This document shows, one piece after another, positions 2,151 through 16,260 of a stretch of DNA of 64,000 bases. The position numbers and the translations under genes are program-made. Positions within the stretch are counted from its first letter, which is position 1, and every line of letters starts with the position of its first letter. The notes beneath the pieces are model-generated. The model had not been told where the DNA came from, did no database searches, and worked only from the letters and a program-made list of their open reading frames with translations. Source of the DNA: an uncultured Eubacteriales bacterium (GTDB taxonomy: Bacteria; Acidobacteriota; Aminicenantia; Aminicenantales; Aminicenantaceae); assembly GCA_964633715.1 (NCBI GenBank), contig CAZWHQ010000010.1, forward strand, positions 26,263-90,262, given 5' to 3'.

Positions 2151-3056
2151 TTAAATCGGGAATTTGATCCTTGTCAACTCTTCGGAAATATCCCAGAGCT
2201 TTTGGGCTATCTCTTTATCATGTGAAGACTCATTCGAATTGACTTTTTTTGGATATCCCTTCTGTTCTTGCCATCCGGATGGGCCGTAATAATCATTTCC
2301 TTTGACATCAGCCGCTGTAGCGGCATAGAGTGTCGGCAGGGCTCCCATATCAATCCCCTGGGAAAAAAAATGATTGAGAAAACCCAATAGACCCACATGC
2401 CTCTGAAGATCTGTGGCCGTCCAACCGGGATGCGCAGCCACTGCGATTGTCTTCGATCCAATTTTTTCCAATTTCTCCTGCAGTGCATAGGTGAAATAAA
2501 GATTGGCGATTTTGCTGTCGCCGTAGGCCTTTGTTTTTTTGTACTTTCGCTTTTCCCAGTTGAGGTCATCAAAATCCAGCTTCCCATATCTGTGACCTGT
2601 ACTACTCACTGTGACAATACGTGAATTTTCTGTCTTTAAAAGCAGGTCCAAGATTTGACCCGTCAGGGCAAAATGCCCCAGATGATTTGTCCCAAATTGG
2701 AGTTCAAATCCATCGGTGGTTTTGGAGTAGGGCGGCATCATGACACCGGCATTATTGATCAGCAAATCCAGTCGCGAATATTTTTTTTTGAATTCTTCGG
2801 CAAAAAAGCCCACCAACTTTAAGCTGGCCAGATCCAGTTCCATAACCTTTGCATCTGCATTTGGATGTGTTTCCTTTATTTTTTCTAGAGCCGCCTGACC
2901 TTTGTCCAAATTCCTGACGGCGATTACCACCGCAGCATTTTTAGCCGCAAGCACACGAGCCGTCTCGTAACCGATCCCGCTGCTGGAACCCGTGACAATG
3001 GCTACCCGACCTTTTTGATCGGGAACATCGTGGCTGTCCCATTTCTGTTGTGACAT
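2151..3056 (-). CDS. Short-chain dehydrogenase/reductase (SDR) family oxidoreductase.
   Basis: TGSSSGIG Rossmann motif near the N-terminus and a YxxxK-type active-site region. Similar to the retinol dehydrogenase / WWOX-like SDR subfamily. Confidence 0.85.
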   Translation of the reverse strand: MSQQKWDSHDVPDQKGRVAIVTGSSSGIGYETARVLAAKNAAVVIAVRNLDKGQAALEKIKETHPNADAKVMELDLASLKLVGFFAEEFKKKYSRLDLLINNAGVMMPPYSKTTDGFELQFGTNHLGHFALTGQILDLLLKTENSRIVTVSSTGHRYGKLDFDDLNWEKRKYKKTKAYGDSKIANLYFTYALQEKLEKIGSKTIAVAAHPGWTATDLQRHVGLLGFLNHFFSQGIDMGALPTLYAATAADVKGNDYYGPSGWQEQKGYPKKVNSNESSHDKEIAQKLWDISEELTRIKFPI

Positions 3057-4674: not shown

Positions 4675-6246
4675 TTGAAAATGCCCCTAAAGAGGAGAGA
4701 TTTTTTAAAGCTCACGGCCGCGGGTCTGTCAGGACTAGCTCTCCCGCTCAACTTTTCCTGCAGAAACCGCAGAGGCCGTCCCAATATTCTCCTCATCTGT
4801 GTGGATGACCTGCGCCCGGAGCTGGGATGTTATGGTCAAGAGTTTATCAAGTCTCCGCACCTAGACTCTCTCGCTCAAGAAGGTATTGTTTTTTCTCGAC
4901 ATTTTATTCAGGCCCCGACATGCGGCCCCTCGAGGTACAGCCTTTTAACAGGTCTGCGCCCCAGGACTAAAGCGGAGCTGAATAATGCTTTTATGGAAAA
5001 TAACTTTTATAAAAGACCGGAAACAGAAATTCCTGAAACTTTTATACACCATTTCAAGCGCAACGGTTACTTAACAGTAGGGATCGGCAAGATCAGCCAT
5101 ACTCCTGACGGCCGGATCAGAAAAGACAATTCAACATTGGAGCTGCCCTACAGTTGGGATGAGATGCTCAGTGAAAAGGGGCCTTGGGGCGGAGGATTTG
5201 ACACCTTTTTTGCCTATGCCAGCGGGGAAAGCCGGGCAAGTTTGAAGTTTCAGGTTCCTCCGTATGAGTGTGCCGACGTCCCTGACGAAGGGTATCCGGA
5301 CGGATTAAACGCAAATCTGGCTGTCCGGAAACTCAAGGAACTTTCCGTCAAGGACAAACCCTTTTTGCTGGCTGTGGGATTCTACAAACCCCACCTGCCT
5401 TTTAATTCTCCAAAAAAATACTGGGATCTCTATAAACGCCAAAACATATCTTTGTCTCCCAATCCTGATGTGCCAGTCAACACTTCATTGGACCTCCTGC
5501 ATGACAGCCGTGAATTTTTCGGCAACTACCAAAAGGGAAAAGAATATGGAGCGAGAGGAAAAAAGATCAGCGAGGCGTATGCCCGAGAAATTCGTCATGC
5601 CTACTTTGCAGCCGTAAGCTATGTCGATGCTCAAATTGGAAAGGTTCTCGACAATTTAAAGGATCTCGAATTGGACAAGAATACCATTGTCGTCCTATGG
5701 GGAGACCACGGATGGCATTTAGGCGACCACACGATATGGGGGAAACACAGCCCATTTGAACGGTCCACCCACAGCCCGCTTATTATCAAATTCCCCGGCA
5801 TGAAGAGGTCCGGAATCAGCACAAGAGCACTGACAGAAACAATCGATATCTATCCAACACTCTGCAGTCTAACAGGAATTCATCCTCCCCCCGGCCTCGA
5901 GGGAAAAAGCCTTATCAAAATTCTGGATGAGCCGCAGACAGATGGAAAACAGGCCGTCTACAGCTACCAGAATAACCGCATTTCCATGAGGACAGACCGC
6001 TTCCGACTTGTCGCCCAGTATGAAGAGGACCGCCCTTGGACATTTGCCCTGTTTGATCACCAGGCCGATCCCTATGAAACAATAAATATTGCCGAAGACC
6101 ATAAAGATATCGTCGAACAATTACTGCCGCTGCTGAATGAAGGCAACACAGGGATTATCCCAAAAATTGATTTGACAAAGAATGGGGATGGATCTCAAAA
6201 AATTTGCCCCGATAATCAATCCTGTGGTATGTTCAAACCAGAATAA
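4675..6246 (+). CDS. Sulfatase, formylglycine-dependent, iduronate-2-sulfatase-like, with a Tat signal.
   Basis: The N-terminus has a Tat motif RRDFLK. ILLICVDDLRPELGCYGQ closely resembles the iduronate-2-sulfatase N-terminus. The C-x-P-S-R formylglycine motif is present as CGPSR. Confidence 0.85.
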   Translation: MKMPLKRRDFLKLTAAGLSGLALPLNFSCRNRRGRPNILLICVDDLRPELGCYGQEFIKSPHLDSLAQEGIVFSRHFIQAPTCGPSRYSLLTGLRPRTKAELNNAFMENNFYKRPETEIPETFIHHFKRNGYLTVGIGKISHTPDGRIRKDNSTLELPYSWDEMLSEKGPWGGGFDTFFAYASGESRASLKFQVPPYECADVPDEGYPDGLNANLAVRKLKELSVKDKPFLLAVGFYKPHLPFNSPKKYWDLYKRQNISLSPNPDVPVNTSLDLLHDSREFFGNYQKGKEYGARGKKISEAYAREIRHAYFAAVSYVDAQIGKVLDNLKDLELDKNTIVVLWGDHGWHLGDHTIWGKHSPFERSTHSPLIIKFPGMKRSGISTRALTETIDIYPTLCSLTGIHPPPGLEGKSLIKILDEPQTDGKQAVYSYQNNRISMRTDRFRLVAQYEEDRPWTFALFDHQADPYETINIAEDHKDIVEQLLPLLNEGNTGIIPKIDLTKNGDGSQKICPDNQSCGMFKPE

Positions 6247-6297: not shown

Positions 6298-6546
6298 ATG
6301 GATGACAAACAGAAAAAATTTGAATGTGCCCACTGCGGCTTCACCGCTGACAACAAATTCACAGGGGATATCTGCCCCGATTGTGGATTGACATTCTGGA
6401 AATGCGGCAACTGTGGATTTCTCCATACTGCGGCTGCTCCACCCAACACATGCCCATCATGCAAACAAAAATGTGAGTTCCGAAATGTCTCATGTTACAC
6501 ACCTGACTGTGGGGGACCGGGCAAAGTGGATCCCCGTTTAGTCTAA
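6298..6546 (+). CDS. Small rubredoxin-like double zinc-ribbon protein, 82 aa.
   Basis: Four CxxC knuckles are present: CAHCG, CPDCG, CGNCG and CPSC. Two of them are the CPxCG form typical of rubredoxin. AAGGAG lies 8 nt upstream of the ATG. Confidence 0.55.
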   Translation: MDDKQKKFECAHCGFTADNKFTGDICPDCGLTFWKCGNCGFLHTAAAPPNTCPSCKQKCEFRNVSCYTPDCGGPGKVDPRLV

Positions 6547-6624
6547 ATCACAACTGCAGATTGACCCCATATCTCCGGTGTGCTAACTTATCCTTCAAGC
6601 TAATTAAACCTGGAGGAAAAAAAC

Positions 6625-7035
6625 ATGGCTAAAATTGAATGGGACAACAGCTTATCCATTGGCGTGGATATAATTGATGAGCAGCACAAAATGCTCATCC
6701 AAAAATTAAAAGATCTTTCCGATGCTTTCCAGATGGGACTCGAACAGAACAAAATGCTGAAGACCATAGATTTTATGATCGATTATACCGACTTTCACTT
6801 CTGTGAGGAAGAGAACCTCATGGCTAAGCATAAGTATCCGGGATTAGAAGCACAAAAAAAACAGCACAGGGAATTTCAGGAAACACTGAGCCATATATTG
6901 GAGGACTATCAGGATGAGGGCCCAACCAAGGCTCTGGCAACGTCTATCAACGTTTTTTTGCTCAACTGGTTAATCAATCATATCAAAGGTGTTGATGTCC
7001 AAATCGGAAAATTTTTATCTGACAAAACGAGCTAG
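6625..7035 (+). CDS. Hemerythrin-like (bacteriohemerythrin) protein.
   Basis: The N-terminus MAKIEWDNSLSIGVDIIDEQHKML is hemerythrin-like. His and Glu ligand spacing (H..H..E..H..H..D) is conserved. A strong RBS GGAGG is present. Confidence 0.8.
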   Translation: MAKIEWDNSLSIGVDIIDEQHKMLIQKLKDLSDAFQMGLEQNKMLKTIDFMIDYTDFHFCEEENLMAKHKYPGLEAQKKQHREFQETLSHILEDYQDEGPTKALATSINVFLLNWLINHIKGVDVQIGKFLSDKTS

Positions 7036-7074
7036 AACTCACAAAGATCCTTTGATTCGAGACAGGTCAAAAAA

Positions 7075-8967
7075 ATGAAAGAATTAAAGCTGTTCGGTAC
7101 CAAAATTATCGATGACGTCTTTACCGACGAAATTTCTTTTTTTAAGCCTAAATTTGAGGTGGATTATGACGCCTATGTGGAAAGACTCTGGAAGGCCAAT
7201 CCGGAGCTCCACAAAATCCTCAAAAACGCGGATGACTTGGAGGCCGCAAGGGATGGTGTCTTTTCCTATCTGGAGCAAGCCGAACGAGAAATATTCGCTG
7301 TGGACAACGATCTCCATATTTTGGAAAAGGCTACCGTGAGGGAAGGAATCCGTGCTTTTAAAAGTATAATCGGTCCGGTCAATGAATACCGCACCGAAGT
7401 GTCTGCCCTGGATATCTTGTGGAAGTTGGCTCAGGACACAAAAGACGACATCAGAACAGAAGTTTCTGTAGGATTTTTAATGGAATTTATCAATCTGTTC
7501 CGGAGTGTCATCGGTCAATCCAATATCTATCATGAGAATGGTGAGGTCAAAAAACATATTCCCGACTTTTTAAAGCTCGAGGGACTTGCAGCAGCTCAGG
7601 CGAGAACGGACATCCTGGATGAATTGGGTTCAACTGTAAAGAAATATTTTAAAAAATATCCTTCCGGACTCGAAGACGAAGTGATTTTTTGGCGAAAAGA
7701 AAATAAGACAAAAATACTCCATTATTTTGGAGGAAAAGAGGCAGATTGGAACGATTATAAATGGCATCTCAAACATGTTATCAGTGATTCCAAACCGCTT
7801 CTGGATCTCATCGAACTGACCAAAAATCAAAAAAATGCCATCGAAAAAGCCAATCTCAACAAAATACCCTTTGGGATCACACCCTACTATCTCAGCTTGA
7901 TGGATTCAAATATCTCCATCGGTTATGATCACGCTATTCGCGCACAGGTGATCCCTCCAAAAAAATACGTGGACTCGATGTCCGAACACCGGGAGGAACG
8001 GAACACCTTTTTTGATTTTATGGGAGAACATGACACCTCTCCACAGGATTTGATCACACGCCGCTATCCCTTAATTTCGATCTTAAAGCCCTTTAATACA
8101 TGCGCACAGATCTGCATCTACTGCCAGCGCAACTGGGAGATCGAACGGGTATTGGATCCAAAAGCCACGGCCTCGAAAGAACAGATCGATTTAGCCCTGG
8201 ACTGGTTTGATGACCACAAAAGTGTCGGAGACATTTTGATAACAGGCGGAGATCCTGTCGTGATGAAAGACAATCAATTGGAGAGGATTTTAGACATCCT
8301 AGCCAAGAAAAAACACATCTACCGCATCCGACTCGGAACAAGGACACCGGTTGTCCTTCCCATGCGCTGGACCGACGACTTGATCAAGATTGCCGCCAAA
8401 TATCACGATCCTCCACGAAGAGAGATTGCCGTCGTCACACATTTTGAACATCCCTACGAAATCACCCCGGAGAGCTTGGAGGCCGTTCAAAAAATTCGAA
8501 AAACCGGGATCGGTGTCTATAACCAGGTCGTCTTCACCATGGAAAATTCCCGGCGTTTTGAACTGGCAAAGCTCCGCTGGGACTTAAAATCCATCGGCGT
8601 GGATCCTTACTACACATTCAACATGAAAGGAAAAGAGGAAACCCAACAGTATATGGTCCCCATTGCACGAATTTTGCAGGAAAGGAAGGAGGAGGCCCGG
8701 CTGCTGCCCGGACTGGACCGCACAGACGAACCTGTTTTTAATGTGCCTAAATTGGGGAAGAACCATCTGCGCTCCTGGCAGGATCACCGCTTAGTGATGA
8801 TTCTGCCCAATGGCTCTCGAGTCTATGAATTTCATCCTTGGGAAAAAAACATTGCTCCGGTTCCACCATATAATTATATCGATGTTCCTATCTACGATTA
8901 CCTGGAAGAGTTGGCGGCCCGGGGTGAAAATATACGGGATTACCGGACAATCTGGTTTTATTATTAG
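7075..8967 (+). CDS. KamA-family radical SAM aminomutase, unusually long at 630 aa, with an extra N-terminal domain of about 220 aa.
   Basis: The CxxxCxxC cluster motif is present as CAQICIYC. The TPYYLSLMD, RAQVIP and ITGGDPVVM blocks match lysine 2,3-aminomutase family cores. The N-terminal 220 aa have no KamA counterpart. Confidence 0.8.
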   Translation: MKELKLFGTKIIDDVFTDEISFFKPKFEVDYDAYVERLWKANPELHKILKNADDLEAARDGVFSYLEQAEREIFAVDNDLHILEKATVREGIRAFKSIIGPVNEYRTEVSALDILWKLAQDTKDDIRTEVSVGFLMEFINLFRSVIGQSNIYHENGEVKKHIPDFLKLEGLAAAQARTDILDELGSTVKKYFKKYPSGLEDEVIFWRKENKTKILHYFGGKEADWNDYKWHLKHVISDSKPLLDLIELTKNQKNAIEKANLNKIPFGITPYYLSLMDSNISIGYDHAIRAQVIPPKKYVDSMSEHREERNTFFDFMGEHDTSPQDLITRRYPLISILKPFNTCAQICIYCQRNWEIERVLDPKATASKEQIDLALDWFDDHKSVGDILITGGDPVVMKDNQLERILDILAKKKHIYRIRLGTRTPVVLPMRWTDDLIKIAAKYHDPPRREIAVVTHFEHPYEITPESLEAVQKIRKTGIGVYNQVVFTMENSRRFELAKLRWDLKSIGVDPYYTFNMKGKEETQQYMVPIARILQERKEEARLLPGLDRTDEPVFNVPKLGKNHLRSWQDHRLVMILPNGSRVYEFHPWEKNIAPVPPYNYIDVPIYDYLEELAARGENIRDYRTIWFYY

Positions 8968-8976
8968 CCGTATTTT

Positions 8977-10062
8977 TTATGCGGCTTGCAGTTCAGCCAG
9001 CAGCCCAGTAATGAGGTCTTTTACTTTGACTATCTTATTAAGGCGATAGGCATTCTGTCCACAGAAAATAAGTCCATGTTCCACATCTCCAAAATAGGAG
9101 TTGAGGAGAGCGCGGGCAATGCAGTATTTCGCTGTACTTACTTTACAGAGCGTCAGGCACCGGTAGGGGCACTTGACCTTGAGCTTCCCTTTAATATCTA
9201 TGTTCTTAAGGAACTTGTTATAGATAGCCCGCCCCGGCATACCAACAGGACTTTTAATGATGGTGATGTCTTCCTCTGTGGCATCAAGGTAGGCCTGTTT
9301 AAACTCCTGAGAAACATCACACTCATCGGTGCAAACAAAACGTGTGGCCATCTGAACCCCGGAAGCACCCATTGATATCATTCGAGCAATGTCTTTTCCG
9401 GTAAATATCCCTCCGGCCGCGATGACAGGAATTTTCTTTCCCTGTTTATCTTCAAAGGGTTTGATGGTCTCCAAAATCTGAGGGAGGAGAATTTCCAGAG
9501 AATACTTTTCCGGTTCCTCAAGCTGCTCCACAGAAAAGCCAAGGTGCCCTCCTGCCAAAGGGCCCTCAAGAATCAATGCATCAGGGATTCGTCCATATCG
9601 TTTATCCCAGGATTGGAGAACAAGCCTGGCGACTCTGGCCGAGCTCACAATCGGAACAAGATTCACCGATGTATCATTGACAGTAGCAGGGAGTTTTATG
9701 GGAAGTCCGGCGCCATAAATGATAATTTTTATGCCTTCCCTTACAGCAGCCAGGATCATATCATCCACATTGGAGAGTACTCCCATAAAATTCACGGCCA
9801 AATGGCCATCTGTTTTACTTTTTGCCTTTCGAATCTCCCTGATTAGCGATTCTCTGGATTCACTCTCATAGTCTTTTATTCCGGCTTTTACGTTTCCCAG
9901 TCCAACACTCGCAATGGTTCCTATCGCTCCTGTATCAGCCACAGCTGCCGCCAGAGAAGAGAGAGACACTCGCACACCCATTCCCCCCTGTATGATCGGG
10001 ATGTCAGCAGTGATCGAGCCAATTTTTAATTTCGGAATATCCACACAATCTTTCCTAAACAT
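8977..10062 (-). CDS. Nitronate monooxygenase / 2-nitropropane dioxygenase family flavoprotein (FabK-like TIM barrel).
   Basis: Contains PIIQGGMGVRVS, AAGGIFTGKDIARMISMGASGVQMATRF and a GAGLP block. The track start at 10074 is a TTG. I prefer the ATG at 10062. Confidence 0.75.
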   Translation of the reverse strand: MFRKDCVDIPKLKIGSITADIPIIQGGMGVRVSLSSLAAAVADTGAIGTIASVGLGNVKAGIKDYESESRESLIREIRKAKSKTDGHLAVNFMGVLSNVDDMILAAVREGIKIIIYGAGLPIKLPATVNDTSVNLVPIVSSARVARLVLQSWDKRYGRIPDALILEGPLAGGHLGFSVEQLEEPEKYSLEILLPQILETIKPFEDKQGKKIPVIAAGGIFTGKDIARMISMGASGVQMATRFVCTDECDVSQEFKQAYLDATEEDITIIKSPVGMPGRAIYNKFLKNIDIKGKLKVKCPYRCLTLCKVSTAKYCIARALLNSYFGDVEHGLIFCGQNAYRLNKIVKVKDLITGLLAELQAA

Positions 10063-10160
10063 TTTTTTTCGCAAGGGATTTTTAATTAAATTATACGATT
10101 TTTTTTCTGAAATTCAATAGTTTTCTCGATTTTTCACGTCACTCAGAACTTATTTCCAAG

Positions 10161-11498
10161 CTATTGACCTTCAATACAGTAGAGATTTTTATATCCGCGC
10201 AGAAACAACTGGTTTCCGACAACAACGGGTGAAGCGTTAAAATTGTCATCCAGTTGGTTTTTTGCCAGTATGTCAAAATTGGGGCCGTGTTTGATCACAA
10301 AGGCCATTCCATTTTGTCCAAGGATGATGATTTTGTTGCTGGCCACAATGGGGGACGCGAAAATATTCCCCATTCCTTCAAGCCGCTGATTGCTGTAGAA
10401 AGCTTTCCCTGTTTTTGCATCAAAGCAGGAGAGGATACCATTATTGCTCTTGAGAAAATACAGGGAATCTTCGAAGAGCAGAGGAGAAGGTGCATAAGGT
10501 GTATCTTGATCAAATTTCCAAATGATCGCATCCGTACCGGTGATGTTCCCCTTGGCCTCGGAAAGACGAATGGCCAGAAGCGCATTTCCTCGATAACCGC
10601 TCATCAGATAGACAACCCCCTTGGCTTCCACCGGCATGGGGATGGCGTTCATTGTCATTCCGGCACATTCCCAGATCAGATCTCCGGTGGCAAGATCATA
10701 GCTCCGGATCAGTGCCGTTGCGCTGGTGATCACCTGAGGTTTTCCATTGTTTTCAACAATCAAAGGTGAAGCCCAGGAAGTTCCTTCATCGCGGTCGACT
10801 TTCCAAATGTCCTTTCCCGTCTTTTTATCGAGAGCGATGATGAACGACTGCCCCTCATGGTCCCATGTGACGACAATTTTATCGCCGTAGAGGGCAGGAG
10901 AACTGCCTTCACCAAAATTCATTCTTTTCTTCAACTGGCCAAAATCCCGATCCCATTTGACATGGCCCTCCATGTCCAGACAATACAGTCCCCGGGAACC
11001 AAAGTAGGCATAGATGTGTTCGCCGTCTGTCAGAGGAGAATTTGAGGCCCAGCTGCCGAACTGGTGCGTCCCTTCCTGAGGCCATTCTTCCTTGACTGTT
11101 GTCTGCCAGAGGATTTTCCCGTCATTCCGGTCCAGAGCCATCACAACAAACTTATGGATTTTATTCGTCCTCGATGAGGGCATCCCGCGGCCTTGTGCAG
11201 TACCTCCAGCCGGCTCTTCGGGTTGGCCCTCTTTTTCGGTCTCCACGGCCGTGGTCAGATAGATTCTATTTCCCCAGATGATAGGGGTGGAATGGCCCTT
11301 CCCAGGGATGGCGATTTTCCATTTGATATTTTTTGTCTCGCTCCACTCAGATGGGAAATTTCCATTGGGAGAGACACCGTTGTCAAGAGGACCCCGCCAC
11401 TGCGGCCAGTTATTTTCGATGTCCGCCCCATTCTCATAAGCTAAAAAAAAGCTCGAACAGACGACTAAAAGACTCATCAACAAAGCAAATTTTTTCAT
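10161..11498 (-). CDS. PQQ-like beta-propeller repeat protein (BamB-like fold), secreted; paralog 1 of 6 in this window.
   Basis: Signal peptide followed by the N-terminal NWPQWRGP motif and PIIWGNRIYLTTA. Repeated W/G-rich blade signatures follow. AAGGAG lies upstream. Confidence 0.75.
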   Translation of the reverse strand: MKKFALLMSLLVVCSSFFLAYENGADIENNWPQWRGPLDNGVSPNGNFPSEWSETKNIKWKIAIPGKGHSTPIIWGNRIYLTTAVETEKEGQPEEPAGGTAQGRGMPSSRTNKIHKFVVMALDRNDGKILWQTTVKEEWPQEGTHQFGSWASNSPLTDGEHIYAYFGSRGLYCLDMEGHVKWDRDFGQLKKRMNFGEGSSPALYGDKIVVTWDHEGQSFIIALDKKTGKDIWKVDRDEGTSWASPLIVENNGKPQVITSATALIRSYDLATGDLIWECAGMTMNAIPMPVEAKGVVYLMSGYRGNALLAIRLSEAKGNITGTDAIIWKFDQDTPYAPSPLLFEDSLYFLKSNNGILSCFDAKTGKAFYSNQRLEGMGNIFASPIVASNKIIILGQNGMAFVIKHGPNFDILAKNQLDDNFNASPVVVGNQLFLRGYKNLYCIEGQ

Positions 11499-11527
11499 TC
11501 TTGTGGATCTCCTTATAAATTGTGGAA

Positions 11528-12901
11528 CTATTCTGCAATACAGTACAAATGGGTTGATGTTCGGATAAAAAGCTGTGATCCTGAGACGGCTGGGGACGCC
11601 AGTGTATAACTCCCGTCAAGCTCATTCGTTGCAAGAAGTTTGAATTCCTTCCCTACAGAAATAATGGATGTCACGGCTCTTTCATTGATGATATAGAGTT
11701 TCCCATCCGAAAGAATGGGAGAGGCGCTCACGATTGCCTCCGTAGTAGATTCCGGTCCCCATATTTGTTCTCCTGTTTTTGCGTCCAGACATGTCACAAG
11801 GCCTCTGTCATCGACCATATAAAAATATGTGCCGTCACAGACCGTGGAGGGAACATCCGGGCCGGCTGCCCCTTCATATTTCCAGACCAGATGGCTCTCC
11901 GTGATGTCTCCTGTCCCTCCGACCTTAAGAGCCAGAAGAGGTTTTTTCCGGGAGGGCGCATAGATTATTCCATCCACAACAATCGGCGTGGGAACGATGC
12001 GGTAATTTGAGCGCTTTAGAGGATTTAATCCGGCGGCCCGCCAGATCTCTTTTCCTGTCTTAAAATCATGGCCTGTGACATAATCCCCTCCCGAGATAAC
12101 GATCTGCGTCTGTCCCCGGTATTGAAGGACAACGGGAGTCGTGTAAGCATCGGGGGATTCCCTTTCTGCATCCGTCGGGCGCTCCTGATGCCACAGGACT
12201 TTTCCTGACTTGGCCTCAAAGGAAACGATATAAGAGGGGTCATCCGTGCGCATCCCATGGAGGACCTCAACAATGAGGCTGCCATCGTGCAGCAGCGGTG
12301 AAGATCCATAACCCCAATTGTGACCAAAGGGACCGTAGTCTTTTTGCAGATCTTTTTTCCAGATTGATTTACCGTCCATATCAAAACAAAAGATTTTGCC
12401 CGTCCCGGTCACTACCCACACATTTTGCCCATCTGTAACAGGAGAAGGCGTAGAGTCGTTTTGTTTGTTGTGTACCTGGTTTTTATTATCCAGCTCTCTC
12501 TGCCAGAGAATCTTCCCATCCTTTTTGGAAATACAGAGTAAAAACAGTTTTGATCCTCCAGGATCCCTGCCGGGCCTCCGGCTTCTTTGAGTGCCCTGAG
12601 CTTGTTCTTTCTGTGCAGGCTTTTCGGAAGGGCCAGGTTCAGGACTGGATTCTGCTTTGGATGGAGATGTGATAAATATCCGGTTGCCCCAAATAATAGG
12701 AGTTGCCGCACTCCAAGAAGGCAGTTCTGTTTTCCAGACTATATTTTCAGTGAGACTCCACTTCATGGGAAGGTTTACGGCATCGGTGATTCCGTTATGA
12801 AGAGGTCCTCTCCAATGAGGCCAATTTTCTTCAGCCTGGAGATATCCAAAAACACCAAAAAGGGCCACTATTGAGGCCAGGGTCAAAATCAATTTCTTCA
12901 T
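11528..12901 (-). CDS. PQQ-like beta-propeller repeat protein, secreted; paralog 2, in tandem with paralog 1.
   Basis: Carries NWPHWRGPLHNG and PIIWGNRIFITSP motifs. A Ser/Pro/Glu-rich linker insert is present. Confidence 0.75.
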   Translation of the reverse strand: MKKLILTLASIVALFGVFGYLQAEENWPHWRGPLHNGITDAVNLPMKWSLTENIVWKTELPSWSAATPIIWGNRIFITSPSKAESSPEPGPSEKPAQKEQAQGTQRSRRPGRDPGGSKLFLLCISKKDGKILWQRELDNKNQVHNKQNDSTPSPVTDGQNVWVVTGTGKIFCFDMDGKSIWKKDLQKDYGPFGHNWGYGSSPLLHDGSLIVEVLHGMRTDDPSYIVSFEAKSGKVLWHQERPTDAERESPDAYTTPVVLQYRGQTQIVISGGDYVTGHDFKTGKEIWRAAGLNPLKRSNYRIVPTPIVVDGIIYAPSRKKPLLALKVGGTGDITESHLVWKYEGAAGPDVPSTVCDGTYFYMVDDRGLVTCLDAKTGEQIWGPESTTEAIVSASPILSDGKLYIINERAVTSIISVGKEFKLLATNELDGSYTLASPAVSGSQLFIRTSTHLYCIAE

Positions 12902-12966: not shown

Positions 12967-15900
12967 CTATTCCTTTCTTAAAGCTGGAGAAAGATCTTCT
13001 TTTAAGGCCATTTTCGCCGCTAAATACGTCCACAATGCTCCATTGAGACCAACTATAATAAATACTATAAGTATAGTAGGATAAGGGATTTCAGCACCCG
13101 GTGTCAACAGGGAAGGCAGAGTCGCCATGAGTGCCGCCAAAATTCCATATAAAATGCCAGCCGCTAGAAGTGTTATATGCTCGGACAAAACGATGGCCTG
13201 AATCGATTTTTTCGAAAAACCAACAGCACGGAGCAGGGCCAATTCTCCCTGGCGTTCTTTGATATTGCGCCAAACAACAATCCCCAATCCAAAACTTCCC
13301 AGCAGCAGGCCAAAACTCCCAAGAATAAGAAATATGGACAGATAGGTGTTCTGAACGGCATTAAACTCTGCCAACCGATTCGGTGCAGACATAATATCTA
13401 ATCCCAAATCCTGCATAGCCCAGGCTAGTTCATCCAAAGCTTCTCCACTATTCTCGGGTGAACTGTCAACAAGAAAAATTCTGTAGCCACTGACTGAAGG
13501 ATATTTCTGGATAAAGGCCTCCTCAGAAATGATGACATTCCCCTGGAAGATTGAGTTGGATAATCCCCCGACCAATTTGATTTGGAAATTTTGCCCCCTT
13601 TCATCCACATAGGTCAGAGAGTCTCCTACGGATTTACCTAATGCCCAAACAATGACCGACAAATCTGCAACCGCCGGCACAAGGCCATCTTCCAATTGGC
13701 TATCGAGAACTGACCAAGGATTATCCGGATCGACATCCCCTGAAGTTTCGGCAAAAGTAAAGGCTCCTCTCTCTTCGAATTGTTTGGGATTGACTCCGAT
13801 CAACTGTGGATTTGTGACCTGATTGAGATTCAGGCAGCTCGCGTCATCTCCCTCTTTCACCCGGAATTGTACATATCGGAGGTCTAAAGAACGAACCTTT
13901 TCCAATCCGTAAAATTGCTGACCCTTTGTGCTGTTGAGATCATAAAGGACAGGAATTGAACTTTCCCCAAAAAGCGCAAATCCTCCTGTTCCGGATTCTC
14001 TTTTGTTGGCATCTTTGAAAGAATTGAGCCGGTTGGCCCCAACTGTAAATACAATGAACAATCCGCAGGCAAGGAGCCCGATTAGAGTGACACTGCGCAG
14101 GCGTTTTCTAGCGTTGTTCCGGATCCCGATGCGCAACAGGCTGAGCCGGGAGGACTTTTTCGGTCTGCCGATCCTCAACAGCAGGGCATTTGTCAGCGCC
14201 ATCCCACCTGTCAAAAGCAGCGTTCCCGAAATAAAAAACACCATAAAAGCCTTACCCCCCGTGCCAAAATTCGTAAAAAGCAAAAGGAGGCATACTGCGA
14301 CCACGCAGGCCAATCCAAAAACCAAACTTTTTTTTGGTCTTTTTTTACCCAAGCTGTCAAGCTTTGTTTGGCCTCTCTGCAGTGCGGCTGCAGATTGTCT
14401 GACCTGTCTTCTGGTCACCAGCCAGATTGTCAAAAAAGCGACAACACTCCCTATCAATACACCCAATAGAATGGAAAACACTCTAAGATGAATAAAAAGC
14501 ACAGATGTTCCCACAGCAGCCTGCCATACAGTTTTGAGTGCAAAAAGAACAACCTGATTGTAGATCACTCCCAAAAGAGCACCCAAAATACTGCTGACCG
14601 TGATTAGCACGGCGCCTTCAAAAAGCACCAGTCGTCTCACGCTCTTTTTCGAAAATCCCAGTGCGAGATACAGACCAATTTCTTCAGACCTTTTCTCTGT
14701 ATTAAAACCAAACAGCAGTCCTGTCAGCAACAATGCGGCTAAAACTATAAAAAAGCTCAATCCTAAAAAAAGCTCGGAAAAACTTACTGATTGTGAACTC
14801 GCCTGAAGACCGGTCTCCTTGACCGCCTGAAAGACAAATCCAAGATTGGCCGGATCCAAAACTTCTCTCAGTTTGTATTCGAGATTATTTTTATCTAAAT
14901 CCCGAAACCGGACAGCGGTGAAACTTCCAAACCTGTTGGTCCACATCTCTTGTGCCGCTTCCAGAGACACAAAAGCTTTTGGAGTTCCTCCGAAATTATC
15001 CCAATAGTCCTCATCCTTATCTCGGATTTTATCCAAATCAATAGGGATGCCGGGATTCCAGTCACGGCAGTTATCCTCTCCGGCCAACCCTGGAAAATCA
15101 GGAAGGAGATCTTTGTCAGCATAAGGCCCTTGAATAGAAACAACGTCTTTAACCTTGAAGGTCGACGTTTTTTCCTTCAAATCACGCCCTGGCCCCAACA
15201 CATAATATGTCAACTGGATATTGTCTCCCCCTCTAGCTGAGATATCTTGGGACAGCCAATCATTTATAATAATATCATCCTCTCCCATTTCAGCCGGAAC
15301 TTGAGGCATTCCAGGAGCGGAGACAAATGAGTAGGGCGCCGCTCTTGCCCCAAAGCGTATTTCATTAACAAAATAGGTTAGTACAGGTTGGGCTCCAGGA
15401 AAAAGTTGCAGGACTGTCTCCGCAATAGTGGAATCCAGAAAAATTCGATTTGATCTGAGTTCTAAAACATCAGGCTCAGAAACCTTCCGAACGTCCAGAC
15501 CAGCATCATCCAGGATCCACCTCTTTTTAAAGGCCTCATTGAGAGTGAGGATATCCAGCGGGTTGTTTTTTCGTTCCCCCACAAGCAAAACATTTGCTCG
15601 ATTGGGCAGACCCATTTCCTGAGACAAAAAAGAGATGGACACAAATACAGTCATAGGGGCGATCTGATCTGCCCTGAGATGAAACCGACCAAATTCTTCA
15701 TCTGATGCCACCGCCTTTATCCGGAAACGTCTCGCAAGCGATGACTCAGAATCCAATGCAAGAGGAGCATCCTTTGGCATGGCATCCAGTTTTTCCGCTC
15801 GCAGAAGGATTTCATCTCCGGCCTGGACACCCAATCGATTTGCCAGTTGACGGTTGACAACCGCCTCCTCAGGAGAGAGAGCCCCATAAATATCTTGGCC

Positions 15901-16260
15901 GCTGCTCAATTGACTAAAACGATCATCCACACCTAAAACTTGAATGCGGTTAATCCGGCGAGCCCCCCCATCGGCAACAGCGATTCCCCTTGTTTGAAAC
16001 AGAGGGGCAACAGGAGTGCCGAGATCATTCGAAAGATCATCTGCCAGTTGAGTCCGGAAAAAACGGTCACCCGAAGACAGGGCAAATTCAGTTTGTCCAA
16101 GTCTGTCCAACACGATCTGCCGGAGACTGAAGCGCACAGAATCCCCAATGACAAATGAGCCCACCAAAATGGCCGTGCTGACCATGGCTCCCAACACAAC
16201 CCACCGATGACTTTTGCGATAGTGAATCAGACTGCGGAATATAAGTTTTTTAAAATTCAT
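12967..16260 (-). CDS. Large ABC transporter permease with two FtsX domains (YbbP-like), 1097 aa.
   Basis: Two FtsX-type four-TM bundles are separated by large periplasmic domains. Its stop lies 5 bp before the ATPase gene. Confidence 0.8.
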   Translation of the reverse strand: MNFKKLIFRSLIHYRKSHRWVVLGAMVSTAILVGSFVIGDSVRFSLRQIVLDRLGQTEFALSSGDRFFRTQLADDLSNDLGTPVAPLFQTRGIAVADGGARRINRIQVLGVDDRFSQLSSGQDIYGALSPEEAVVNRQLANRLGVQAGDEILLRAEKLDAMPKDAPLALDSESSLARRFRIKAVASDEEFGRFHLRADQIAPMTVFVSISFLSQEMGLPNRANVLLVGERKNNPLDILTLNEAFKKRWILDDAGLDVRKVSEPDVLELRSNRIFLDSTIAETVLQLFPGAQPVLTYFVNEIRFGARAAPYSFVSAPGMPQVPAEMGEDDIIINDWLSQDISARGGDNIQLTYYVLGPGRDLKEKTSTFKVKDVVSIQGPYADKDLLPDFPGLAGEDNCRDWNPGIPIDLDKIRDKDEDYWDNFGGTPKAFVSLEAAQEMWTNRFGSFTAVRFRDLDKNNLEYKLREVLDPANLGFVFQAVKETGLQASSQSVSFSELFLGLSFFIVLAALLLTGLLFGFNTEKRSEEIGLYLALGFSKKSVRRLVLFEGAVLITVSSILGALLGVIYNQVVLFALKTVWQAAVGTSVLFIHLRVFSILLGVLIGSVVAFLTIWLVTRRQVRQSAAALQRGQTKLDSLGKKRPKKSLVFGLACVVAVCLLLLFTNFGTGGKAFMVFFISGTLLLTGGMALTNALLLRIGRPKKSSRLSLLRIGIRNNARKRLRSVTLIGLLACGLFIVFTVGANRLNSFKDANKRESGTGGFALFGESSIPVLYDLNSTKGQQFYGLEKVRSLDLRYVQFRVKEGDDASCLNLNQVTNPQLIGVNPKQFEERGAFTFAETSGDVDPDNPWSVLDSQLEDGLVPAVADLSVIVWALGKSVGDSLTYVDERGQNFQIKLVGGLSNSIFQGNVIISEEAFIQKYPSVSGYRIFLVDSSPENSGEALDELAWAMQDLGLDIMSAPNRLAEFNAVQNTYLSIFLILGSFGLLLGSFGLGIVVWRNIKERQGELALLRAVGFSKKSIQAIVLSEHITLLAAGILYGILAALMATLPSLLTPGAEIPYPTILIVFIIVGLNGALWTYLAAKMALKEDLSPALRKE

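Follow-up and report, generated by a model that had tools for sequence, protein, structure and literature searches.

The window analysed here is a stretch of 64,000 nucleotides (nt) from the contig CAZWHQ010000010.1 of an uncultured Aminicenantaceae bacterium (Acidobacteriota), and all positions given below are those of the whole window. We describe a gene on its + strand (7075..8967) that encodes a 630-amino-acid (aa) protein, a long form of the KamA family of radical S-adenosylmethionine (SAM) and pyridoxal 5'-phosphate (PLP) aminomutases, which has thousands of homologues aligning over its full length. Judged from its sequence, this protein is probably an N-terminally extended type of glutamate 2,3-aminomutase, and belongs to a widespread clade whose members are already publicly labelled as 'KamA family radical SAM protein'. 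The gene is the last of three open reading frames (ORFs), all on the + strand. The first (6298..6546) encodes an 82-aa cysteine-rich protein with two rubredoxin-like or zinc-ribbon knuckle pairs, and the second (6625..7035) a bacteriohemerythrin of 136 aa. An earlier note, made from the letters of this DNA and its list of ORFs, had placed the three co-oriented ORFs at these positions and had named a rubredoxin-like protein, a bacteriohemerythrin and a KamA-family protein as their products; these domain calls are borne out by searches with Pfam and NCBIfam models.

The 630-aa protein begins with an all-helical N-terminal domain (residues 1-212, 7075..7710), the conserved core of which starts at about residue 30. 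It is followed by the KamA core, a radical SAM barrel (residues 213-561, 7711..8757), and by a C-terminal domain (residues 562-630, 8758..8964) that is highly conserved, as seen from its invariant columns and from an alignment to AblA C-termini, and contains no cysteine. The CxxxCxxC motif of the core, CAQICIYC (8101..8124), carries the predicted [4Fe-4S] ligands C343, C347 and C350 and is followed by R352. The codon of Lys518 is found at 8626..8628, and the segment NVPKLGK, with Asn556 and Lys562, is encoded at 8740..8760. The motifs CAQICIYC, FNMKGKE and PVFNVPKLGK were verified by translation of the DNA.

The KamA core and its substrate pocket

The KamA family model (TIGR00238) matches the 630-aa protein with 329.2 bits (cut-off 199.2), as expected from the KamA identity proposed in the earlier note, and the match is restricted to residues 213-561. 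The only relative in the PDB that is detected by sequence is the lysine 2,3-aminomutase of Clostridium subterminale (2A5H; E-value 2e-38 in the protein search and 9e-45 in the profile search). The stretch aligned to it by phmmer comprises residues 221-532 of the window protein, and the KamA core aligns to residues 11-307 of 2A5H. Among the NCBIfam equivalog models, that of glutamate 2,3-aminomutase (TIGR04368) scores highest, with 237.5 bits over residues 182-531 against a cut-off of 650.

Residue equivalences were taken from the alignment to 2A5H, extended through the AblA protein of Peptoclostridium acidaminophilum, and conservation was counted in 243 full-length family members that are 41-92% identical to the window protein. 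C343, C347 and C350, each kept in 242 of the 243 members, correspond to C125, C129 and C132 of 2A5H (CAQICIYC aligned to CSMYCRHCTR), which we take to be the ligands of the [4Fe-4S] cluster. R352 (kept in 242 members) is found at the position of R134, which presumably binds the alpha-carboxylate of the substrate, and K562 (Lys in 242 members) at the position of K337, presumably the PLP lysine (VFNVPKLGK in the window protein, VVDAPGGGGK in AblA). The two aspartates D293 and D330 of 2A5H, which we take to bind the epsilon-ammonium group of lysine, are both replaced. K518 occupies the D293 position, on which the phmmer and MAFFT alignments agree, and is Lys in 237 of the members; N556, placed through AblA, occupies the D330 position and is Asn in 242 of them. 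The roles of R134, D293, D330 and K337 are reportedly those described by Lepore et al. (2005), and glutamate 2,3-aminomutase (Eam) is said by Ruzicka and Frey (2007) to be defined by the exchange of D293 and D330 for a Lys and an Asn. The window protein has this Lys/Asn pair at the two positions.

Basic and neutral residues at the positions that contact the ammonium group of lysine argue against lysine as the substrate and for an anionic side chain. Since K518 and N556 replace both lysine-binding aspartates, an acidic amino acid is the most likely substrate, with L-glutamate as the most probable one, and the glutamate model as the top-scoring equivalog agrees with an anionic substrate. The earlier note had named no substrate for the enzyme and had pointed to the pocket residues of the 2,3-aminomutases as the place to look; when the core is aligned to the lysine enzyme 2A5H, the window protein still has the three Cys, the Arg and the PLP Lys and lacks the pair of Asp residues that contact lysine. 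This narrows the choice to acidic side chains, among which that of glutamate is the likeliest.

Many family members are listed by the Joint Genome Institute (JGI) as 'lysine 2,3-aminomutase', while NCBI uses only 'KamA family radical SAM protein'. That the protein would in fact be a lysine 2,3-aminomutase is suggested by the JGI name, by its homology to 2A5H and by lysine-catabolism genes found near members in Bacteroidales, yet we regard it as extremely unlikely: with Lys and Asn in place of both ammonium-binding aspartates a cationic side chain would be repelled or left unbound, the AblA equivalog reaches 189.8 bits against a cut-off of 525, and the name given by NCBI stays at the level of the family.

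The window protein and the lysine 2,3-aminomutases (2A5H, AblA/KamA) have in common the radical SAM core with its CxxxCxxC motif, the carboxylate-binding Arg, the GGD motif and the PLP lysine. They differ in the Lys/Asn pair, in the N-terminal helical domain of about 210 residues and in the C-terminus, as no Cys is found beyond residue 350 of the window protein whereas the aligned AblA-type sequences carry a C-terminal Cys cluster (CxCxxC or CxxCxxC, a zinc site). Bacterial Eam of the Clostridioides difficile type, compared by model score and description only, provides the best-scoring equivalog model (TIGR04368) and reportedly has the same Lys/Asn pair (Ruzicka and Frey, 2007) but, at about 420 aa, lacks the N-terminal domain.

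The N-terminal domain and the long-form clade

No Pfam or NCBIfam model matches residues 1-212, and the KamA model match starts at residue 213; the extra N-terminal domain outside any assignable family that the earlier note had described is genuine. A phmmer search with residues 1-220 against 1.84 billion cluster representatives retrieved only 182 clusters, mostly of short proteins with the domain near their N-terminus, which we read as fragments from short contigs. A KamA core is present downstream of the domain in every full-length match that was aligned or scanned, although it is degenerate in three of them (P0133, P0134 and P0135). Compared with the closest relative, which is 92% identical (locus L001), the part of the gene that encodes the domain shows 18, 16 and 66 differences at first, second and third codon positions, respectively, with 55 synonymous and 27 non-synonymous codons. 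The domain is translated and under purifying selection.

The earlier note had allowed that the N-terminal residues could result from a mis-called start. This is excluded by the conservation of the domain, the full-length homologues and the purifying selection, and the start at 7075 is the earliest possible start codon past the upstream stop. The approximately 15 nt that precede it (AGGTCAAAAA-ATG) are common to the window and to the 92% relative. The helical domain of about 210 residues is best regarded as an integral, family-defining part of the enzyme.

An AlphaFold2 model of the domain, computed from an alignment of 46 sequences (24-88% identity), is confident and all-helical (predicted local distance difference test, pLDDT, 83.9; at least 90 for most of residues 30-150 and 200-230), and no fold relative of it was found among solved structures. 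Near-invariant residues in the 243 members include R59 (242 members) and R177 (241 members), as well as G198, W225 and W230. It is speculative, but the domain may take the place of the zinc-mediated oligomerisation domain, which this clade lacks, or may lend Arg59 and Arg177 to the active site.

In the three proteins with a degenerate core (657-926 aa), the N-terminal domain and most of the core are still present, but neither the Cys triad nor the PLP lysine remains; two of these proteins begin with about 300 extra low-complexity residues. They look like catalytically dead relatives. In another protein (P0196, 1357 aa), a DnaJ domain, the N-terminal domain, the radical SAM core and a Peptidase_M54 (archaemetzincin) domain are joined, either by a real fusion or by a gene-call merge.

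The earlier note had also suggested that the long N-terminal domain could set a new subclass apart, and a distinct long-form clade is indeed found, with full-length homologues throughout and the domain upstream of the KamA core. A protein database search with the 630-aa query gave 3786 matches. The best 120 of these are all 602-661 aa long, share 73-92% identity with the query across 96-100% of its length, and come from Acidobacteriota, KSB1, Marinimicrobia, Bacteroidota, Eremiobacterota and an 'archaeon'. In full-length homologues of 598-660 aa the alignment begins at about residue 3-9. In a genome scan that considered one genome per species, at least 519 species have a relative, and 80 loci were kept for analysis. 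Nearly all of these loci align from residues 1-9 through 630. The closest is from a Candidatus Aminicenantes metagenome-assembled genome (MAG), at 92% identity, and the sole record not labelled as a MAG is Prolixibacter denitrificans DSM 27267 (L055, 70% identical). Identities of 73-76% over 630 residues across phyla, including the 'archaeon' and a 'Ferroglobus sp.' MAG, are unusually high, which points to a recent horizontal transfer, to contaminated bins or to a very strong constraint.

Archaeal members of the clade (598-615 aa) are found in genomes of the type of methanogens or anaerobic methanotrophic archaea (ANME; L097 5001-10401 and L098 4025-6797). One is flanked by genes for a P-type cation ATPase and an MscS mechanosensitive channel; another adjoins the gene for methylene-tetrahydromethanopterin dehydrogenase (MTD), which points to a methanogen or ANME genome. 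A search with a divergent, AT-rich representative (P0268) returned members from Methanosarcinales and Euryarchaeota MAGs, and no Methanococcales name among them.

These archaeal members bear on the comparison with MmarC7_1783 of Methanococcus maripaludis C7, a KamA homologue with an N-terminal extension of about 160-200 residues that, according to Tunckanat et al. (2022, Biochemistry 61:1077), is reportedly a glutamate 2,3-aminomutase giving beta-glutamate. The notes to TIGR00238 reportedly give MJ0634 about 200 additional residues at its N-terminus as well. Enzymes of the MmarC7_1783 type resemble the window protein, by their description only, in having an N-terminal extension before the KamA core, which starts at residue 213 in the window protein. 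MmarC7_1783 is archaeal and the window protein bacterial, though the long-form clade includes methanogen-type archaeal members. By this analogy we infer that the long-form clade would be the clade of MmarC7_1783.

A more distant long form is the 704-aa 'KamA family protein' of Parabacteroides distasonis (WP_009275016). Residues 108-212 of the window protein have a homologous counterpart within its N-terminal region (hhalign probability 97%, E-value 9e-11), so that long forms extend to gut Bacteroidales. As in the window protein, the D293 position is occupied by a Lys, and both the N-x5-K and the YRTIWxY motif are present, but the 704-aa protein differs in a core identity of only about 29%, in several large insertions and in the gene that follows, which encodes a DUF2148 ferredoxin-domain protein. 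A gene of this type is located on the P. distasonis plasmid NZ_OY725748 (L083 2407-6110), where it is followed by the DUF2148 gene and a hypothetical gene, and similar genes occur on plasmids of Bacteroides finegoldii and Phocaeicola massiliensis.

Gene neighbours of the long-form KamA gene

In the window, the three ORFs are preceded by genes for a fucosidase and a sulfatase and followed by a convergent gene for an NMO/FabK-like FMN oxidoreductase (8977..10074, - strand; PF03060, 198.6 bits), all assigned with Pfam. Further on are two tandem genes for PQQ_2/BamB-like beta-propeller proteins with signal peptides and then a gene for a 1097-aa FtsX/MacB-type permease (10161-12901 and 12967-16260, both on the - strand).

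The earlier note had read the three ORFs as a redox-supported, oxygen-buffered aminomutase, in which the rubredoxin-like protein would reduce the SAM cluster and the hemerythrin would scavenge or sense O2. The local arrangement speaks for such a system. The genes are co-oriented with intergenic gaps of only 78 nt and 39 nt, and no terminator-like site lies between them, while a hairpin with a T-rich tail is found at the 3' end of the KamA gene (8942..8966, + strand; a pattern match from a consensus scan). Radical SAM clusters are O2-labile, and homologues of the cysteine-rich protein are encoded near oxidative or general stress genes, such as that for desulfoferrodoxin. Co-transcription of the three genes, in the window genome only, is possible.

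The two small proteins were examined individually. The 82-aa protein has four CxxC pairs, with a RUBY_RBDX match (46.8 bits) at residues 34-60 and a DUF7129 match below the cut-off at residues 4-30. The 136-aa protein matches the bacteriohemerythrin model NF033749 (114.8 bits, cut-off 84). Aligned to the hemerythrin domain DcrH-Hr (2AVK), it has Gln77 (nt 6853-6855, in LEAQKKQHREF) in place of the first His of the HxxxH pair and keeps the other ligand positions, and its diiron site is possibly non-canonical.

The wider genomic comparison does not support a conserved system of three genes. When the window hemerythrin and cysteine-rich protein were searched with phmmer against every ORF within 6 kb on either side of the KamA gene in the 80 related loci, no match was found outside the window. 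The family of the cysteine-rich protein is small (about 141 proteins), and in 13 loci its homologues adjoin desulfoferrodoxin/Usp/CBS genes, YflT/BON stress genes or PmbA/TldD-like genes; a hemerythrin or KamA gene is present in none of the 13. A three-gene operon conserved between genomes is ruled out by these two counts (0 of 80 KamA loci and 0 of 13 loci of the cysteine-rich family), and the synteny on which the proposal of the earlier note depended is thus absent.

The two closest relatives lead to the same conclusion, as both lack the hemerythrin and cysteine-rich genes at the position upstream of KamA. In the 92% relative the order is fucosidase, sulfatase, KamA and NMO, and the sulfatase stop is located 21 nt before the KamA start. 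In the 90% relative (L005), a divergent gene for a short-chain dehydrogenase/reductase, the window counterpart of which is at 2151-3056, lies directly upstream of KamA. The C-terminus of the window sulfatase (4675-6246) is 27 residues longer, ending in KIDLTKNGDGSQKICPDNQSCGMFKPE, than that of its orthologue in the 92% relative (L001 2059-3549). This longer end coincides with the junction where the hemerythrin and cysteine-rich genes sit, and the two small genes together with the longer sulfatase end would represent either an insertion in the lineage of the window or a loss in its relatives. Given the absence of both genes from the 80 related loci, together with the Gln at a His ligand position of the hemerythrin, we consider a system of the three proteins very unlikely; the hemerythrin and rubredoxin-like genes are better seen as lineage-specific neighbours than as parts of the enzyme system.

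Clustering of the neighbours in the 80 loci revealed no partner family common across phyla, and the long KamA gene normally stands alone. The NMO homologue follows KamA only in the 92% relative. A universal partner gene was thus rejected, and the synteny that was found is at the level of an order, with genes for lysine-ketoglutarate reductase (LKR) and saccharopine dehydrogenase, gliding genes and OmpA-like genes in Bacteroidales. In about 15 Bacteroidales loci (L060, L063-L065, L075, L076 and others), the genes for LKR (AlaDh_PNT) and saccharopine dehydrogenase are located 0.1-2.5 kb downstream of KamA on the same strand. This linkage appears to tie the KamA gene locally to lysine and glutamate metabolism.

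The same linkage is among the arguments for an aminomutase that acts on a different acidic or larger substrate, converting L-2-aminoadipate to 3-aminoadipate or acting on saccharopine or on peptide- or protein-bound glutamate, with the arginines of the N-terminal domain building an altered binding site and the protein forming a new subclass. The missed cut-off of the Eam equivalog fits this explanation, as do the extra conserved domain with its invariant R59 and R177 and no known fold relative, and the identity of 73-76% between phyla, which is unusually high for an enzyme of small molecules. However, the link to saccharopine genes is limited to one order, no precursor-peptide or partner gene is conserved among the neighbours of the 80 loci, the Lys/Asn pair that replaces D293 and D330 is the one that glutamate enzymes reportedly carry, and the N-extended archaeal homologue is likewise reported to be a glutamate enzyme. 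We consider this explanation unlikely. We also give little credence, and regard as quite unlikely, that the clade represents a new subclass of aminomutases from anaerobic bacteria of sediments and the gut, in which the N-terminal domain would confer a novel substrate or partner (2-aminoadipate, intermediates of the saccharopine pathway or macromolecule-bound glutamate) and which would include catalytically dead paralogues.

Proposed reaction and implications

Very probably, the window protein is a genuine long-form KamA-family aminomutase that is not specific for lysine and stands outside any conserved three-gene system. In the reaction that we propose from what is known of the family, the reduced cluster on C343, C347 and C350 would cleave SAM to yield the 5'-deoxyadenosyl radical. 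The substrate amino acid would be held as an external aldimine with PLP, which would rest on Lys562, and its alpha-carboxylate would be bound by Arg352. A hydrogen would be lost from C3 of the substrate and the amino group would migrate from C2 to C3. The conversion of L-glutamate to beta-glutamate would be the most probable reaction, and the product may serve as a compatible solute or as a catabolic intermediate. The full proposal, namely that the protein works on its own as a glutamate 2,3-aminomutase with an N-terminal extension and produces beta-glutamate, with glutamate as the substrate included, is in our judgement moderately probable.

Marine methanogens, Methanosarcina among them, are documented to use beta-glutamate as an osmolyte (PMC1224877), and a glutamate 2,3-aminomutase of methanogens is named in the title of a cited work. 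Na+ or c-di-AMP elements control eam and ablA in other organisms, where both are treated as osmoprotectant genes (PMC9337991).

Several observations weigh against glutamate as the substrate and beta-glutamate as the product. The cut-offs of all equivalog models are missed (glutamate, 237.5 of 650; AblA, TIGR03820, 189.8 of 525.4; arginine, 164.6 of 600; EpmB, 125.1 of 369), and by these models the 630-aa protein falls outside the bacterial Eam family that has been characterised. The Lys/Asn signature was judged from the positions in lysine 2,3-aminomutase and from the literature on Eam only; a tblastn search of plasmids matched ablA, blsG and epmB, and no eam. The register from N556 to K562 requires a one-residue deletion relative to AblA, that is, a loop one residue shorter. 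The AlphaFold2 model of the full-length protein is too poor (pLDDT 52) to show how the N-terminal domain meets the active site. The linkage to LKR and saccharopine dehydrogenase genes would fit another acidic substrate, such as 2-aminoadipate, equally well. Finally, a search with Rfam of the window and of the long upstream regions of 13 members found no osmoregulatory riboswitch, and other upstream RNAs (the Na+ and c-di-AMP elements being examples of what was considered) were likewise rejected, with no Rfam match in the window or in these 13 loci.

The locus illustrates that a suggestive local gene arrangement can turn out to be lineage-specific, and the N-terminal domain adds to a well-studied radical enzyme a module that is conserved and has no structural assignment. 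If the glutamate 2,3-aminomutase assignment is true, the widespread annotations of clade members as 'lysine 2,3-aminomutase' would be corrected, and many uncultured anaerobes (Aminicenantes, KSB1, Marinimicrobia, Zixibacteria, Ignavibacteria, Bacteroidales and ANME- or methanogen-type archaea) would have a one-gene route to beta-glutamate. Beta-glutamate, known mainly from methanogens, would then be extended to much of the sediment biosphere.

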